Of a stretch of DNA of 64,000 nt, positions 2,733 through 10,481 are shown piece after piece. The position numbers were made by a program, and so were the translations under genes. The stretch comes from Trueperaceae bacterium (GTDB lineage: Bacteria > Deinococcota > Deinococci > Deinococcales > Trueperaceae), in the NCBI GenBank assembly GCA_965213705.1, contig OZ243913.1:3520001-3584000 (forward strand), given 5' to 3'. The number at the start of each line of letters is the position of its first letter. The first letter of the stretch is position 1. The notes beneath the pieces were generated by a model that saw only the letters and a program-made list of their open reading frames with translations, was not told the origin of the DNA and made no database searches.

Positions 2733-2837
2733 CTATACCGGCTGTGCTAGGCTGTGGGCGAAAATGGACTCAGGAACACAGCCCCACCAACACAGTCTCG
2801 GCAACACAGTCTCGGCAACCAAGACAGGCAGGAACAC

Positions 2838-3533
2838 ATGGCAGATGTGAAAACTTTTTTGACGGGGGTCCCTCTTTTCAAAGACGCCCCCGAACGCGCC
2901 CTCGAGATAGCGGCGTCGGTCATGCAGTTGCGCAAGTTCGATACCGGCAGCGTCATCTTTCAAGAGGGTGACGTCGGCGAAGCGCTCTACGTGCTCGTGG
3001 GCGGCCTCGTCAAACTTTCCAAGGTGGACTTGGGCGGTTACGAGAAAACCCTCGCCATTCTTCAGCCGCCCGAGTTTTTTGGCGAGATGGCGCTGTTGGG
3101 TGCCAAAACGCGGAACGCGACGGCGGAGGCCTTGGGCAGCGTCGAGGCTTACTTGCTGTTCGGCGACGACTTCAACAAGCTCCTCCAGACGTACCCGACC
3201 GTCAGCTTGAACCTCACCACGACGCTGGCCCAACGCCTGCGCGGCATGGACGACGAAGCGCAAATTCTGTCTTACAAGGACGCTCAAGGACGCGTTGCCT
3301 TCGTCTTGTTGCGGCTCTACCGCAGCGGCGTCATCGACCTGACCGAAAGCGGTCAGGCGCTCGTGCGCCTGACGCACCAAGACATCGCCAACCTGGCGGG
3401 CACGAGCCGCGAAACCGTGACCCGCGCCCTCAGGGTGCTCGAGAACGAACAAGTCATCGCCACCCGCCCCAAGGAAGTCGTTCTGACGGACGTTCAGGGA
3501 TTGGAAGAGATTTTGCACGGCATCAGGGAGTAG
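2838..3533 (+). CDS. Crp/Fnr family transcriptional regulator
   Basis: cNMP-binding domain (FFGEMALL...RNATA) plus HTH LTHQDIANLAGTSRETVTR; start placed at ATG 2838. Confidence 0.95.
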   Translation: MADVKTFLTGVPLFKDAPERALEIAASVMQLRKFDTGSVIFQEGDVGEALYVLVGGLVKLSKVDLGGYEKTLAILQPPEFFGEMALLGAKTRNATAEALGSVEAYLLFGDDFNKLLQTYPTVSLNLTTTLAQRLRGMDDEAQILSYKDAQGRVAFVLLRLYRSGVIDLTESGQALVRLTHQDIANLAGTSRETVTRALRVLENEQVIATRPKEVVLTDVQGLEEILHGIRE

Positions 3534-4047: not shown

Positions 4048-5193
4048 ATGACTATGGTTGTTGACAAGGTTGAGGCTGCCAAGCAGCGAGAAGCCGTCGG
4101 TTTGGCCCGTGAACTCGCTCAGGGGTTCAGGGCCGGAGCTGGGACCGCGGACGAGCAAGGAGCCTTGCCCGCTGCGGATGTCGCCGCGCTCGAGAGCGCG
4201 AACTACCCCGGTCTCGCCGTGCCCGAAGCGTATGGCGGCCGGGGCGCCTCGCTCGAGGCTTGTGTCGCGGCGCAACTCGAGCTGGCCCAGGGCAGCGCCT
4301 CCACCGCGCTCGTCGCCGCGATGACCCTGCACATCGTCGGGCACGAACGCGAGGTGCGAAGTTGGACGCCCGCAGCCCGCGACGCTATTTTCGCCGACGT
4401 GGCGCGCGGCGCGCTGCTCAACAGCGCGGCGAGCGAGCCGCGCCTCGGCAGCCCGTCGCGCGGCGGGCTGCCCGACACCTACGCTCAAAAGAGCGGGGAC
4501 ACACTCCTTGTCAATGGTCACAAAAATTGGGTGACCGGCGGCGAACACTTGACCCACCTTCTCGTGCGTTTGCGTCTGGCGGACGAGGCGGTGGTGGTGT
4601 GGCTGCCGAGCGACACCCCCGGCTTGCGCTGGGAAAAAACGTGGGGGGACGGCCTCAGCTTGCGGGCCAGCGACAGCCACGACCTTTATCTGGAGGACGT
4701 GCGGGTGCCTGCCGCCAACCTCGTCCAGCGAGGCAAGTCCCCGGGAAACGTCTGGTTTCCCATGTTGGTCGCGGCGACCTACCTCGGCACCGCTTGCGCC
4801 GCGCGGGACGACGTCGTTCGGTACGCGCTCTCCCGCGTGCCCACCGCCCTCGGCAAGCCTATCGCCACGCTGCCGGGCGTCCAGCGGCAAGTCGGCGACA
4901 TCGCCATTTCCTTGCAGGCGGCGCGAAGCTTTTTGCTGGCGGTCGCCGCCGAGTGGCGCGGGCTCGAGGACGAGCGCGAAGATTTTTTGGCGAAAGCCGC
5001 GAGCGTCAAGCACGTGGCGGTCGAAACGGCGCTGCAAACGACCGACAAGGCGCTACGGGTCGCGGGGGCGGCGGGAATCGACAAGGGGTTGAATTTGGAG
5101 CGTTACTTCCGCGACGTGCGTGGCGGGCTGATGCACCCACCCTCGAGCGACGCCGCCCTGGAGTTCGTGGGACGGCGGGCTCTGGGCCTGTAA
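4048..5193 (+). CDS. Acyl-CoA dehydrogenase family protein
   Basis: AASEP, NGHKNWVTG, LRASDSHDL, LERYFRDVR motifs. Confidence 0.92.
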   Translation: MTMVVDKVEAAKQREAVGLARELAQGFRAGAGTADEQGALPAADVAALESANYPGLAVPEAYGGRGASLEACVAAQLELAQGSASTALVAAMTLHIVGHEREVRSWTPAARDAIFADVARGALLNSAASEPRLGSPSRGGLPDTYAQKSGDTLLVNGHKNWVTGGEHLTHLLVRLRLADEAVVVWLPSDTPGLRWEKTWGDGLSLRASDSHDLYLEDVRVPAANLVQRGKSPGNVWFPMLVAATYLGTACAARDDVVRYALSRVPTALGKPIATLPGVQRQVGDIAISLQAARSFLLAVAAEWRGLEDEREDFLAKAASVKHVAVETALQTTDKALRVAGAAGIDKGLNLERYFRDVRGGLMHPPSSDAALEFVGRRALGL

Positions 5194-5462
5194 GCTGCAA
5201 GACTGTGGCAAAATTGTAGCTGCAAGGCTGTAGCGGCTGTTCGTACAAAACGACTCGCGCGAACCGGCGGCGAAGGACTCCGCCAGCGCCGCGCGCAAGT
5301 GTCAACTGAGCAACCCCGAGACCGGCGCGTGTTCCGCGACCGATTCGCACAAGGCTCGGCTTACGCACGAAGTGCCGTCAACAGACCCCCGTTGTCCACC
5401 TCGTCTCGACCACCAAGCTCTATTCGGCTTCCCGTCGCCGGTGTACGGGTATGCTGTAGGGG

Positions 5463-7463
5463 ATGGCAGCTCGAGACAGTCATTCCCAACGCCGCAGCAC
5501 TTACCTGCTCGTGTTGCCCCTTACCGTCATTGCCGTCGCCGTCACTTACCTGGTCGAACTCGGCCAAAGCAGTGTCGACCCGTTCAACCTAGTGGCGTTG
5601 CCCCTGCTGGCTTTGCTGTTCAGCCTGCTGGCGACCGCGCACCTGCTGAACTTGCTGAGCTTGCGCGCAGTCGAGGCCGGACTTTTCGCCACCGCCGCGC
5701 TCGCCTTTTTCGGAAAGCTCGGTCACACGCTTTTGTTTGCTTACTCGCCCTTCGAGCGGGCGCACGAGTTGAGCCAGGTTTTTATCTGGACGCCGTTCGT
5801 CTACGCGGTGGCTTTTCTGGTCGGCACGCCCAGGACGGGGTTGTACCGTGCCGGCGCGGTCTACTTTATGAGCGTCGGCATCGGCGTTTTTGCGGCGTTG
5901 CGGGGCGGCGCCCTGGGCGACTACCGGCTCGGTGAATACTACCTGGGCAACCTGGTGTTGCTCGCCCTTTTGTACCTCGTCGGCAGCCTGCGGGTGCGGT
6001 TGGGCGAGCTGCAGAGCAACTTGAGCGAAATGGCGCGCCTGGCGACCTCGGACTTTTTAACCGGGGTACCCAACCGGCGGCGCTTGGAAACGCAGTTGCA
6101 ACGCGAATTAGAACAGCACCGCCGCTACGGCGCGCCGGTCTCGGTGATTTTGTTCGACATCGACAACTTTAAAAGGTTCAACGACACCTACGGCCACGCG
6201 CTCGGCGACGGGGTGCTCAAAAAAGTGGCGAACTCGGTACAACACGAGTTGCGCTCGACCGACGCTTTCGGACGTTGGGGCGGCGAGGAGTTTTTGGTCG
6301 TCGCGGGCCACACCGACGCGCGCCACGCGACGCTGCTCGCCGAACGCTTGCGGCAGCGCGTCGAGGCGAGCGAGGTCGCGGGAGCCGGCCCGGTCACGGC
6401 CAGCTTCGGGGTGGCCGCGTGCCACGACGACCTCAGCTTAGAAACGCTCATCGAGCGGGCAGACGCGGCGCTCTACCGCGCTAAAACACTGGGCAAAAAC
6501 CGCGTCAGCCTCGACAGCCCGGACGGTTTACCGGCGGCGGTTGAGTTGCCGCAACTGGACTACCCGTTTGCCGAAGTGCTCAAAAAGCCCGACGCCGCGG
6601 TTGTGACGGCGGTAACGGCCTGGTTGGCGGGGTTCGGGCTCGGGCCTGTGCCCGCCGACTTGCGCGAACACGTGGCGCGCAGCTTCAGCTGCTTGGCTAC
6701 GACCCTGCACCCTTACGCGAGCAAAGACTGGCAGGTTTTGCTCGGCAAGTGGTACTGCTGGGCGTTTTTGCACGACGACCGCTGTGACGGCAGCGAGTTG
6801 GGACGGCAGCCGGAGCGGCTCGAAAGCTTGACCGACAGGCTGGCTGAGCTGTTCGCCGGAGCGCCGGTCCGGGCGGACGACGAACCCCTCGGCCGGGCGT
6901 TGACCGACCTGCGCGCCGAACTGCTGAGCGCGGCCGGCGACGTTTGGGTGGAGCAACTGAGTGAAGAGCTCGAGCGCTACTTTGCCGCCCTGGCTTGGGA
7001 AGCGCAGAACCGGGCCGACAACACCACGCCGAGCCTGAGCCGCTACTTAGAAATGCGGCCCGTCACGGTCGGTTTGCGGCTGGACGACCTGTTCAGCCGT
7101 GCCGACGGGCTGCACGTTCCAGAAGGCGTGCGCAACCTTGCAGGCGTGACCGCCCTGACCCGCTTAGCCAACGAAACCGTGTGTTGGGCCAACGACCTCG
7201 TGTCGCTCGACAAAGAGTTGCGGCAAGGTGACGTACACAACTTGGTTCACGTGTTGCAACACGCTCACGGCTTCGACTTGCAAAATGCGGTCCAGCAAGC
7301 GAGTTTGCAACACGACCAAACGCTGGCCCGCTACCTGTCGGCCGAACAGCACCTAAAAGAACGGCTCGACGGTTGGCGCGACTTAGACCTGTACTTGGAA
7401 TTGCTCAGGGCGCGCGTGCGCGGCATCTACGACTGGTCGTTGGTGTCGGGGCGGTACCGCTAG
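5463..7463 (+). CDS. Membrane-anchored GGDEF diguanylate cyclase fused to a class I terpene synthase
   Basis: About 6 hydrophobic segments in aa 12-175; DFLTGVPNRR, FDIDNFKRFNDTYGHALGD, RSTDAFGRWGGEEF, ADAALYRAK; then LPQLDYPF, FLHDDRCD, YLEMRPVTVG, WANDLVSLDKE, GDVHNLV, WSLVSGRY. Confidence 0.92.
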   Translation: MAARDSHSQRRSTYLLVLPLTVIAVAVTYLVELGQSSVDPFNLVALPLLALLFSLLATAHLLNLLSLRAVEAGLFATAALAFFGKLGHTLLFAYSPFERAHELSQVFIWTPFVYAVAFLVGTPRTGLYRAGAVYFMSVGIGVFAALRGGALGDYRLGEYYLGNLVLLALLYLVGSLRVRLGELQSNLSEMARLATSDFLTGVPNRRRLETQLQRELEQHRRYGAPVSVILFDIDNFKRFNDTYGHALGDGVLKKVANSVQHELRSTDAFGRWGGEEFLVVAGHTDARHATLLAERLRQRVEASEVAGAGPVTASFGVAACHDDLSLETLIERADAALYRAKTLGKNRVSLDSPDGLPAAVELPQLDYPFAEVLKKPDAAVVTAVTAWLAGFGLGPVPADLREHVARSFSCLATTLHPYASKDWQVLLGKWYCWAFLHDDRCDGSELGRQPERLESLTDRLAELFAGAPVRADDEPLGRALTDLRAELLSAAGDVWVEQLSEELERYFAALAWEAQNRADNTTPSLSRYLEMRPVTVGLRLDDLFSRADGLHVPEGVRNLAGVTALTRLANETVCWANDLVSLDKELRQGDVHNLVHVLQHAHGFDLQNAVQQASLQHDQTLARYLSAEQHLKERLDGWRDLDLYLELLRARVRGIYDWSLVSGRYR

Positions 7464-7728
7464 TTAAAACGCCTACAGGGGTTAACGAGCCGTGGGCAAC
7501 GTCTGGCGCGCCAAGAAACTACCATCCGGTTTTAAGCCGGCTCGAGCGCTCGAAACACGCGTCCGAATGCAGAAAGCCCAAGACGACTTGTTAAACTGGA
7601 CTCATGCCAAGACCTGTCCTGAGCGTGCCCTTCTTGTGCCGGACCCTTGCTCGTCCCGCTTCGCTAGAGTCTGTGATTGACAGTATAAGTAACGAGTCTA
7701 TGGTCAACGAGTCTGCAAAGCGGACGCC

Positions 7729-9267
7729 TTGGCAGACGCCGTGACGGACGCCAACCGCCCCGGCGCGGGTATCCTGGTGATTTTCGGTGCCGGGGGCGAC
7801 CTCGCCTGGCGCAAACTGCTGCCCGCCCTGTTCGACTTGTTCGTCGAAGAGTTTTTGCCCGCGAAGTTCGCCGTCGTCGGTTTGGACCGCAAACAGCTGG
7901 ACGACGAGGAATTTCGGGCGCGGGCCAAAGACGGCGTCGAGACGTTTGCACGCTTTAAAGGTGACGTGGCTGAAAAGTGGCCGGCGTTTGCGGACTCGCT
8001 CTACTACCTCGCCGGCGAGGTCGACACGCCCGACACCTACGTCGCGCTGGCCGCCAAACTTGCAGCGCAAGACAACGCTTGGGACGTAAGTAGCAACCAC
8101 ATTTTTTACTTGGCGACGCCGCCTTTTCTCATCGAGCCGATTTCGGCGGGACTCGCGGCGGCGCACTTGCTGGACGCGAGAGACAGCACCCGCATCGTTG
8201 TGGAAAAGCCGTTCGGGCACGACCTCGCCTCGGCTGTGGCCCTGAACGCCCAACTTTCCAAACTCTGTCCGGAATCGCAAATCTACCGCATCGACCACTA
8301 TTTGGGCAAAGAAACCGTGCAGAACATCCTGGCGTTCAGGTTCGCCAACGCGCTGTTCGAACCCGTTTGGGACCGCCGCTACATCGACCACGTGCAGGTC
8401 ACGGTGGCCGAAACGGTCGGGGTCGAGCACCGGGGCGGCTACTACGAGTCGGCCGGGGCCTTGCGCGACATGGTGCAAAACCACCTTATGCAACTGCTTT
8501 GCTTAGTGGCGATGGAGCCGCCGGTCTCGTTCGGCGCGGAGGAGGTGCGCAGCCGCAAGGTGGACGTGCTGCGCGCGGTACGCCCCATCCTGCCTGACAA
8601 CGTGTTCGACGTGGCCGCGCGCGGGCAATACGGGCCGGGTTGGGTGATGGGCGAGAAGGTGCAGGCTTACCGTGCGGAGCCGGGCGTCGCGCCGCGCTCG
8701 AGCACCGAAACGTTCGCCGCCCTCAAACTTTACGTCGACAACTGGCGCTGGCGCGGGGTGCCCTTTTACCTGCGCAGCGGCAAGCACTTGCCCGAGCGCG
8801 TCTCCGAAGTCGTCATCCGCTTCAAACCCGTGCCGCACCAGGCGTTTCCCAACGGCGTGAGCAACCCCATCGAGCCCAACGACATCGTTATTTACATCCA
8901 GCCGGACGAGGGCATTTCCATCGACGTGCAGGCCAAAAAGCCGGGGCTGAACATGCGCCTGGGTGAAGTCGACATGCACTTCGCTTACGAAGAAGCGTTC
9001 CGCGAACCCTCGCCCGAAGCTTACGAAACGCTGCTGCTCGACGTGTTTCGGGGTGACGCGACGCTGTTTATGCGCAGCGACCAGGTCGAGCTGGCCTGGG
9101 CCATCGTGATGCCGGTCCTGAACGTGTGGGCGCAGGCCGAAGACATCAGCTTCTACGACTCGGGCACCTGGGGACCGGACGAGGCGACCGAACTCATCGC
9201 TCGCGATGGCCGCAGTTGGCTCCGCCCGCAACGCCTCAGCACCAAAATCAAAGACAAAAGAGCGTGA
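7729..9267 (+). CDS. zwf: Glucose-6-phosphate 1-dehydrogenase
   Basis: GAGGDLAWRKLLPAL, VEKPFGHDL, RIDHYLGKETVQN, WRGVPFYLRSGK. Confidence 0.98.
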   Translation: MADAVTDANRPGAGILVIFGAGGDLAWRKLLPALFDLFVEEFLPAKFAVVGLDRKQLDDEEFRARAKDGVETFARFKGDVAEKWPAFADSLYYLAGEVDTPDTYVALAAKLAAQDNAWDVSSNHIFYLATPPFLIEPISAGLAAAHLLDARDSTRIVVEKPFGHDLASAVALNAQLSKLCPESQIYRIDHYLGKETVQNILAFRFANALFEPVWDRRYIDHVQVTVAETVGVEHRGGYYESAGALRDMVQNHLMQLLCLVAMEPPVSFGAEEVRSRKVDVLRAVRPILPDNVFDVAARGQYGPGWVMGEKVQAYRAEPGVAPRSSTETFAALKLYVDNWRWRGVPFYLRSGKHLPERVSEVVIRFKPVPHQAFPNGVSNPIEPNDIVIYIQPDEGISIDVQAKKPGLNMRLGEVDMHFAYEEAFREPSPEAYETLLLDVFRGDATLFMRSDQVELAWAIVMPVLNVWAQAEDISFYDSGTWGPDEATELIARDGRSWLRPQRLSTKIKDKRA

Positions 9268-9449: not shown

Positions 9450-10481
9450 ATGAGACGCTACGCCCTGCCCGTTACCCTGTTCGTCGTTTTGACGGTCGTC
9501 GTGAGCGGCTGGTTGGTCACCCGCCGGGCGGGGGTGCAGGGGGTCGAAACGGCGCGCGCGCAAGACGGCCTGCGCGGCGAGGTTAGAAGCGTGCGTGTCG
9601 AAACGTTTCCCGTGATGAGCCGTTCCGGCGAGTGGACGGAAGCCGCCGGCAGTTTGGAGAGCGAAACCCTCTACACGCCGCAGGGTAACCTTTTAGAGGT
9701 AAGTCGCTACCGCCCGGACGGCGGGCTCGAGTACCGCCTCGTCCACCGTTATGAAAACGGCCGACTCACCGAAGAGACGAGTTTCGGCGACGGCGACCGA
9801 CCTCTTTACAGCTGGTTTTACGTCTACGACGGCGAGGGCCGCTTGACGAGCCTGAGCGGTTACGACGACCGGGGCGTGCTCGAGGTCAAGACGCTTTACG
9901 GCTACGACGCCGAGGGCCGTTTGGCAACCGAAACGTCCTACAGCGCCGACGAGACCCTAAGCTACGAGGCCCGGCAGAGTTACGCGCAGGGTTACACGCG
10001 CTCGACCGTTTACTTTGCCCAGGGCGAAGCCGAGTCTCGGCTCGAGGAAGTGTTCGACACCGCCGCTCACCGACTGGCCGAGGCCAGCTATAGCCCCACG
10101 CGAACCCTACAGTACCGGGTCGAATACAGTTACACCCCCCAAGGCGACCTGCTGACAGAAAGCGCCTACAGCGCGGACGAGACCCTGGAATATCGTCTTG
10201 AAAACCGTTACGACGAGGCCGGTCTGCTGCTCGAGACCACAGAATACGACGCCGACCTTGAACCCTTTTACCGTTACAGCTACGCCTACAACGACAAAGG
10301 TGACCTTACAAAGCGCGAAAGCCGCGGCGTGGACGGCGGCGGCTCGACGCTAGCTTACACCTACACTTATGACAAACACGATAATTGGACGGTTCGGCGC
10401 ACCTCAAAACTCATCACCCATTCCGACAAAGAAAGCCTAGAGCCGAGCGAGGTCGCGCGCCGAACCGTCAGCTACTACTGA
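9450..10481 (+). CDS. Membrane-anchored YD-repeat protein
   Basis: N-terminal TM; repeated Y-x-Y-D-x-x-G-R-L units; GLRGEVRSV start and YDKHDNW...RRTVSYY end. Confidence 0.8.
   Translation: MRRYALPVTLFVVLTVVVSGWLVTRRAGVQGVETARAQDGLRGEVRSVRVETFPVMSRSGEWTEAAGSLESETLYTPQGNLLEVSRYRPDGGLEYRLVHRYENGRLTEETSFGDGDRPLYSWFYVYDGEGRLTSLSGYDDRGVLEVKTLYGYDAEGRLATETSYSADETLSYEARQSYAQGYTRSTVYFAQGEAESRLEEVFDTAAHRLAEASYSPTRTLQYRVEYSYTPQGDLLTESAYSADETLEYRLENRYDEAGLLLETTEYDADLEPFYRYSYAYNDKGDLTKRESRGVDGGGSTLAYTYTYDKHDNWTVRRTSKLITHSDKESLEPSEVARRTVSYY

Follow-up and report, generated by a model that had tools for sequence, protein, structure and literature searches.

A diguanylate cyclase-terpene cyclase fusion in Deinococcales and candidate sesquiterpene synthase-sensor pairs in other bacteria

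We analysed a 64,000-nucleotide (nt) stretch of Trueperaceae DNA (contig OZ243913.1, positions 3,520,001 to 3,584,000; hereafter the window), in which one gene, P0001, joins a membrane-bound diguanylate cyclase in frame to a class I terpene cyclase. A preliminary description had reported a single uninterrupted open reading frame (ORF) of 666 amino acids (aa) with about six transmembrane segments, a GGDEF domain and a terpene cyclase domain. Translation and a Pfam scan confirmed this layout: the ORF is stop-free, the GGDEF domain scores 149 bits over aa 194-347, and PF19086 (Terpene_syn_C_2) scores 146.2 bits over aa 429-622, against a cut-off of 23.7. Every motif quoted earlier was found at the coordinates collected in Table 1, and the transmembrane segments correspond to six hydrophobic stretches with positive-inside loops, both ends of the domain being inside, and to six N-terminal helices in a structure model. 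The TATGCT hexamer described 7 nt before the ATG is also present; genome-wide, 3% of ATGs have a TA-N3-T motif 5-8 nt before them, and a similar TAGCGT lies 8 nt 5' of the ATG in the homologue L112. Judging from these letters, the fusion transcript is likely leaderless and initiated from the -10-like hexamer. The window genome has 29 GGDEF matches and two polyprenyl synthases, and the fusion is its only terpene cyclase.

Both the diguanylate cyclase and the terpene cyclase look intact. The former has the GG[DE]EF loop, metal-binding Asp, guanine-binding Asn/Asp and DxLT turn of its family, and the helix before the DxLT turn is likely a signalling coiled coil. The latter has the features listed for cyclases in the available text of PMC5082573 (DDxxD, an NSE triad, a sensor Arg that precedes the triad by about 46 residues, and RY), with a sensor-to-triad spacing of 45 residues in the fusion and 42-46 across the family. 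Its closest solved relative by sequence is T-muurolol synthase (expect value (E) 2.6e-40), and it matches the structure 9hr0 in its all-helical class I fold (Z 36.6, root-mean-square deviation 2.0, 300 aligned residues). Among the best 25 of 32 NCBIfam rows, no named synthase equivalog was matched, the best models scoring 78-132 bits against cut-offs of 400-1200. Since the closest solved relatives are sesquiterpene synthases, farnesyl diphosphate (FPP) is the predicted substrate, and from family knowledge both enzymes would be expected to be active.

Table 1. Coordinates of the fusion gene and its parts, of neighbouring genes, and of a related gene cassette (window positions, except those prefixed L228)
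Feature	Position	Strand	Basis
Whole fusion gene P0001, 666 aa	5463..7463	+	single ORF, Pfam scan
Putative -10-like hexamer TATGCT, 7 nt upstream of ATG	5450..5455	+	sequence
Six-helix membrane domain, aa 10-182, N-in topology	5490..6008	+	hydropathy, positive-inside loops, structure model
Amphipathic helix, aa 183-197, running into DxLT turn	6009..6053	+	sequence; L183, A194, D197 invariant
GGDEF domain, aa 194-347 (D232, N240, D249, RxxD 264-267, GGEEF 273-277)	6042..6503	+	PF00990, 149 bits
RSTD (RxxD site)	6252-6263	+	sequence
GGEEF	6279-6293	+	sequence
Short linker, 12-14 residues in 35/35 homologues, low sequence identity	6507..6548	+	homologue alignment
Class I terpene cyclase domain, aa 363-666 (DDRCD, R532, NDLVSLDKE, WxxxxxRY)	6549..7460	+	PF19086, T-muurolol synthase match
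DDRCD	6774-6788	+	sequence
R532	7056	+	sequence
D541, position of pentalenene synthase T182 (pocket floor)	7083..7085	+	family alignment
NDLVSLDKE	from 7191	+	sequence
R651, mostly Trp in stand-alone relatives; clade marker	7413..7415	+	alignment; clade support 99
WSLVSGRY	7434-7457	+	sequence
Crp-family regulator	2754-3533		
Acyl-CoA-dehydrogenase-like gene	4048-5193		
Glucose-6-phosphate dehydrogenase, own promoter-like site 7677-7704	7729-9267		
RHS-repeat protein	9450-10481		
Six-helix sensor-STAS	L228:1292-2626	-	
T-muurolol-synthase near-orthologue	L228:2401-3411	-	
Methyltransferase	L228:3415-4263	-	

The fusion is genuine and conserved. The preliminary description had raised the possibility of a chimeric assembly, and on inspection one Logan contig, which may be the source sample itself, runs unbroken across the junction and covers 5200-7700 without differences. 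Five further members of the 666-aa cluster, on other contigs, are 98-100% identical per domain. The same architecture also recurs in independent genomes. Searching with the cyclase half as query gave 16 clusters, each of which (16/16) carries the two Pfam domains in the same in-frame order, and a profile search added 15 fusion clusters, 7 of these at least 85% identical to earlier rows. Conservation in other Deinococcota, pointed to as a check on the fusion, was borne out: 20 of 299 genomes had an over-cutoff PF19086 match, with GGEEF in frame upstream in 20/20, and 18 of these fusions were intact. Cultured carriers include Deinococcus rufus and Deinococcus metalli, whose protein WP_184109956.1 bears only the annotation diguanylate cyclase. 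Within the Trueperaceae, 13 of 128 genomes matched PF19086, twelve with the fusion and one, L093 (G080:C53), with the family's sole stand-alone synthase; this outlier sits on an exceptionally long branch and has a guanine-plus-cytosine content of 45%, where three fused loci have 61-65%; it is probably contamination or foreign DNA. A plasmid collection gave no match to the fusion at 1e-30, and no RNA sample was listed among those containing it.

Residues were counted in 44 distinct aligned rows, or in the 35 homologues left after removing 10 partial or near-identical rows and adding one that the search pattern had missed; all trees are quick trees. GGEEF is present in 44/44 rows, with D197, D232, N240 and D249 invariant, and in the smaller set D232, N240, D249, GGEEF, D438/D439/D442, N577/S581/E585 and R664/Y665 are kept in 35/35. 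The pyrophosphate-sensor R532 is retained in 34/35 (His replaces this Arg in the fusion L085), and cyclase identity among these homologues reaches as low as 31%. Ratios of nonsynonymous to synonymous substitution rates, from 11 non-independent pairs, were 0.10-0.37 (cyclase), 0.04-0.40 (GGDEF) and 0.12-0.70 (membrane part), and the distances of the two halves correlate (rho 0.80-0.87). All three parts are under purifying selection, and the halves descend jointly. Set against 40 unfused relatives, the fused membrane-GGDEF halves form one branch (support 98); the fused cyclases, taken alone, fall on one side of a branch with weak support (64). One fusion event is the simplest reading. We dropped the idea of a fixed-length linker, its length ranging from 12 to 14 residues.

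In the six-helix domain, E71, K85, W109 and P111 are invariant and E158 is near-invariant. Fused rows (50, of which 47 distinct) have K85 in 50/50 and E158 in 49/50, compared with 1/40 each in unfused membrane diguanylate cyclase relatives, and the topology places both residues toward the outer face. Pfam and the PDB returned no family or structure match for the window's membrane domain. A MASE6 match appeared in 1 of 28 rows (E 0.002), and Atlas neighbours at 0.88-0.92 included MASE2, MASE6, MASE7 and MASE11, which we treat as leads only.

The cyclase belongs to a distinct clade. Arg occupies position 651 in 35/35 fusions, and among 122 stand-alone relatives this residue is Trp in 85 and Arg in 11; D541 is present in 30/35 fusions. 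By alignment D541 and R651 correspond to T182 and V301 of pentalenene synthase, the latter of which we take to line the pocket, and to a Cys and a Trp of T-muurolol synthase; the two may form a compensating salt bridge. T182 of pentalenene synthase lies at the pocket floor, where T182D/E is insoluble and T182R inactive, according to the available part of PMC10045451. In the tree, R651 synthases group together whether fused or stand-alone (support 99). We rejected D541/R651 as a fusion adaptation or as independent covariation (Fisher p 1e-5), because the pair marks a single clade that includes stand-alone enzymes. Outside this clade we noted P0090 (510 aa, one member), a second signalling-type fusion in which EF-hand domains accompany a class I terpene synthase. 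Another unusual protein, P0056, has four tandem terpene cyclase domains in 1617 aa.

T-muurolol synthase (PDB 9hqi, 9hqd, 9hr0) shares DDxCD, the NSE triad, the sensor Arg and RY with the fusion, and differs in being stand-alone, soluble and 31% identical to it. In the available text of PMC5082573, the Roseiflexus castenholzii enzyme makes (+)-T-muurolol from FPP in vitro. Because D541 and R651 replace its Cys and Trp, the fusion product probably differs from T-muurolol. Several unfused relatives carry the JGI label '5-epi-alpha-selinene synthase'.

We then considered the genes beside unfused relatives. A metagenome scan yielded 42 synthase loci. Where neighbours of stand-alone R651 synthases are visible, a GGDEF/EAL gene adjoins the synthase in 9/9 loci (6 groups at 70% identity); further R651 matches were one fusion fragment and one locus cut at a contig end. 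The other 31 loci, with non-R651 synthases and many of them short, have such a neighbour in 0/31. The GGDEF/EAL partners have a common six-helix input domain (alignment A7; hereafter the A7 sensor), and the A7 profile matched neighbours at 18/42 loci, 11 of them beside non-R651 synthases, where the outputs, if their family could be named, were STAS or histidine kinase. The input domain thus stays constant across outputs that vary between GGDEF-EAL, histidine kinase and STAS, with Rubrobacter xylanophilus, R. indicoceani and Herpetosiphonaceae as named members. Control searches found the profile at 0/74 GGDEF-centred loci (808 kb), 0/18 fusion loci and 0/7 loci centred on cytochrome P450 (P450) genes. 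It was also found in 0/299 Deinococcota genomes, the same alignment having matched in Rubrobacteria; given these counts at fusion loci and in Deinococcota, the fusion and a separate A7 sensor do not co-occur.

Several individual loci deserve mention. At two of them, L137:3109-5020 and L221:4180-6077, an R651 synthase stands between a small GGDEF gene, immediately upstream in the same orientation, and the A7 GGDEF-EAL gene. The arrangement resembles a pre-fusion state, and the L137 GGDEF gene has membrane helices that do not match those of the fusion. In some cassettes (L134, L135, L179 and L180), sensor or synthase genes are frameshifted, through decay or assembly error. PAS histidine kinases or a Ser/Thr kinase, each without A7, adjoin other terpene synthase relatives (L148:5961-7832, L156:5968-7923, L158:4191-5627).

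Among 103 Rubrobacteria genomes (the class of G325), 24 have the synthase, 24 the sensor and 23 both. The sensor lies within about 2 kb at 27/28 synthase loci, convergent or in tandem, and 27/30 sensor matches adjoin a synthase; none of these counts uses the unpublished genome G329, which contributed one locus to alignment A3 and to the 74-locus control, and some of the genomes counted may be close to the six A7 seed loci. Synthase and sensor identities co-vary across 24 cassettes (rho 0.84, permutation p 0.001; kin are not independent), and paralogues track the cassette rather than the genome. In Roseiflexaceae (the family of G429, 61 genomes), a sensor lies no more than about 1 kb downstream in 16/27 strong synthase matches, including 15 of the best 16. 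Unfused relatives keep the A7 sensor family as a neighbour in three gene arrangements. One cassette, L228 (Table 1), pairs a near-orthologue of T-muurolol synthase (E 4.9e-113) with a sensor (E 2e-39) that carries STAS. A methyltransferase adjoins it, which makes a methylated terpene or precursor a possible signal. In the same genome, at L229:5193-8543, a second terpene synthase and two membrane-STAS genes, of which one has MASE11, are transcribed divergently and may be another synthase-sensor pairing.

We propose, with a probability of roughly 45%, that the fusion combines a signal synthase with its own receptor in a single chain, its sesquiterpene product tuning cyclic di-GMP (c-di-GMP). A synthase-receptor relationship is suggested because the input domain remains the neighbour while outputs and gene order change. 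The fusion can be read as a one-chain version of the pair because Deinococcales lack the separate sensor and their synthase carries a six-helix domain and diguanylate cyclase of its own. As a cognate membrane sensor accompanies the unfused synthases, the more likely direction of information flow is from terpene to sensor to c-di-GMP, an option absent from the preliminary description. In the proposed mechanism, the cyclase would turn FPP into a sesquiterpene at the inner membrane face, and the product would enter the membrane and bind the six-helix domain. The signal would then pass through the helix before the DxLT turn to the GGDEF dimer and change c-di-GMP output, as family knowledge suggests. 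In Deinococcales the fusion would take the place of the two-gene synthase-sensor cassette. It would have formed once, when this synthase became attached to a membrane diguanylate cyclase, and the six-helix domain of the latter would have assumed the receptor function. More broadly, and more tentatively, we suggest a bacterial terpene signalling system, in which a clade of sesquiterpene synthases and their cognate six-helix receptors feed c-di-GMP turnover, kinases and STAS outputs in Rubrobacteria and Chloroflexota, and the Deinococcales fusion is a self-sensing polypeptide that reports the build-up of its own volatile.

Several observations weigh against this proposal. Binding of the product by the six-helix domain is drawn from gene context. 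The fusion membrane profile and the A7 sensor align with an hhalign probability of 0.1-2.8%, which is not significant, and, as homology between the two is not detectable, carrying the receptor role over to the fusion is an analogy. Given one fusion origin, the conservation of K85 and E158 counts as one event, and two charged residues do not make an obvious hydrocarbon site. A7 was seeded from six metagenome partners, whose matches are by construction, and in Roseiflexaceae only 16/60 A7 matches lie beside a synthase, so the family is not synthase-exclusive there. The gene is patchy (20/299 genomes), and the cyclase half is broken in 2/8 Deinococcus copies: by a frameshift in D. saxicola (L004:7749-7767; assembly error possible) and by an insertion with terminal repeats in G132 (L105 end, L102 start). 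Finally, by analogy with the insoluble or inactive charged T182 variants of pentalenene synthase (PMC10045451, available part), charged residues at the pocket floor may be harmful, and it is not certain that a D541/R651 enzyme is active.

An alternative that we consider unlikely is that the cyclase acts as a direct allosteric input. Prenyl diphosphate and Mg2+ would close the domain, and the GGDEF dimer would receive this change via the linker or by touching the cyclase. The terpene would be a by-product or go unmade, and an unfused synthase would bind its sensor protein itself. The retention of all diphosphate-binding residues, the charges that D541 and R651 would place in the pocket floor and a linker length held at 12-14 residues are consistent with such a switch, and fusion in one lineage with adjacency in others would equally fit physical contact. 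However, R651 and D541 predate the fusion, being present in stand-alone relatives, and the T-muurolol synthase lineage, active in vitro, occurs in the same type of cassette. The part of the partner that is conserved is the membrane domain, not the cytoplasmic output. A P450 gene (464 aa) also stands head to head with the fusion at L112:3586-4980 (64 bp apart), L113:7374-8768 and L117:7420-8784, which favours a real terpene product. This linkage is confined to the three genomes of one genus; we looked for it beyond that genus and did not find it, the best P450 match in the window genome being about 440 kb away.

Information could instead flow in reverse, as the preliminary description suggested, a membrane signal or c-di-GMP bound at the RxxD site setting the dimer state and so switching terpene production on or off; we regard this as quite unlikely. 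In its favour, RxxD is present in 44/44 rows with R295 invariant, and unfused R651 synthases adjoin c-di-GMP enzymes. The preliminary description had listed this inhibitory site, and it is indeed there, as RSTD. As a sign of special c-di-GMP control it was rejected: RxxD is the default in GGDEF domains here (20/22 canonical domains of the window genome and 60/74 unfused relatives), and 2 of the 15 fusion clusters added by the profile search no longer have its Asp. Of the earlier interpretation, the conserved, intact-looking fusion of the two enzymes therefore stands, and c-di-GMP control of terpene output is not singled out. Related synthases are also found with partners whose outputs, kinase or STAS, do not produce c-di-GMP. 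In four Deinococcus loci, a PAS-GGDEF-EAL gene lies directly upstream of the fusion, an arrangement that fits reverse flow and supports a c-di-GMP context under any of the explanations considered here. We rejected this gene as an orthologue of the A7 partners, as it has no membrane domain.

It is just as doubtful that the two enzymes work independently, the fusion securing only their joint expression and the membrane location of the synthase. The structure model (pLDDT 82.9, pTM 0.64; predicted local-distance and template-modelling scores, respectively) is uncertain at aa 183-201, where pLDDT falls below 50, and has low between-domain confidence, which is consistent with this reading. The linker sequence is poorly conserved, and no conserved neighbours were found across genera at fusion loci; the order of acyl-CoA-dehydrogenase-like, glucose-6-phosphate dehydrogenase and RHS-repeat genes seen in the window is kept in a same-genus genome only. 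Independence nevertheless leaves unexplained why one sensor family should neighbour the synthase in three gene arrangements, and why K85 and E158 are specific to the fusion. An assembly chimera or read-through of two genes is refuted by the independent genomes, since the 16/16 clusters, the 15 more and the cultured D. rufus and D. metalli share the in-frame layout and the contig is unbroken.

Signal synthases encoded beside their receptors have precedents. RpfF, a fatty-acid signal synthase, is paired with the PAS-GGDEF-EAL receptor RpfR, and CqsA with CqsS, a six-helix membrane kinase receptor. As proposed for the fusion, the synthase gene lies beside that of a receptor with c-di-GMP or phosphorelay output; these systems differ in synthase family, in signal chemistry and in being separate proteins. 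Among the best 25 of 32 NCBIfam rows, and in Pfam, the 666-aa protein matched none of their families. Work by Agger et al. in 2008 reportedly found Nostoc clusters of a sesquiterpene synthase, a P450 and a hybrid two-component protein, which likewise set a synthase beside a P450 and a signalling protein, and are said to lack both a fusion and any c-di-GMP enzyme. The Pseudomonas aeruginosa protein ImcA (PDB 8wcn) has a six-helix membrane domain followed by GGDEF and matches the fusion over aa 112-348 (E 3.9e-27). In the available part of PMC10904736, ImcA dimerises through its membrane part, is controlled by the partner IsmP and iron, and appears without a terpene cyclase. A search with the fusion membrane-domain profile gave no hit to 8wcn, even at E values as high as 10, and the common six-helix plus GGDEF layout need not reflect homology of the membrane domains.

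Literature searches returned no description of a terpene synthase-GGDEF fusion, although supplementary tables of mined synthases, which lay outside the search, could list these proteins; the available part of PMC6069586 is unrelated to the fusion, and PMC6849719 makes no mention of Rubrobacter. The literature searched gave no account of a specialised-metabolism enzyme fused to an intact diguanylate cyclase, nor of a terpene cyclase clade whose pocket floor is predicted to be charged. The same searches found nothing on sesquiterpene purpose or sensing for these genes.

Little is settled, to our knowledge, about the reasons for volatile sesquiterpene production in bacteria or about whether bacteria sense these compounds. 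The present analysis names candidates: a single protein in cultured strains (D. metalli and D. rufus) and two-gene cassettes, one of them from a lineage with the known product T-muurolol. Should the proposal hold, it would mean a new class of signal, a new receptor family and a fusion of synthase and receptor, and might yield terpene biosensors. Even if the coupling runs otherwise, a specialised-metabolism enzyme joined to an intact diguanylate cyclase stays noteworthy.

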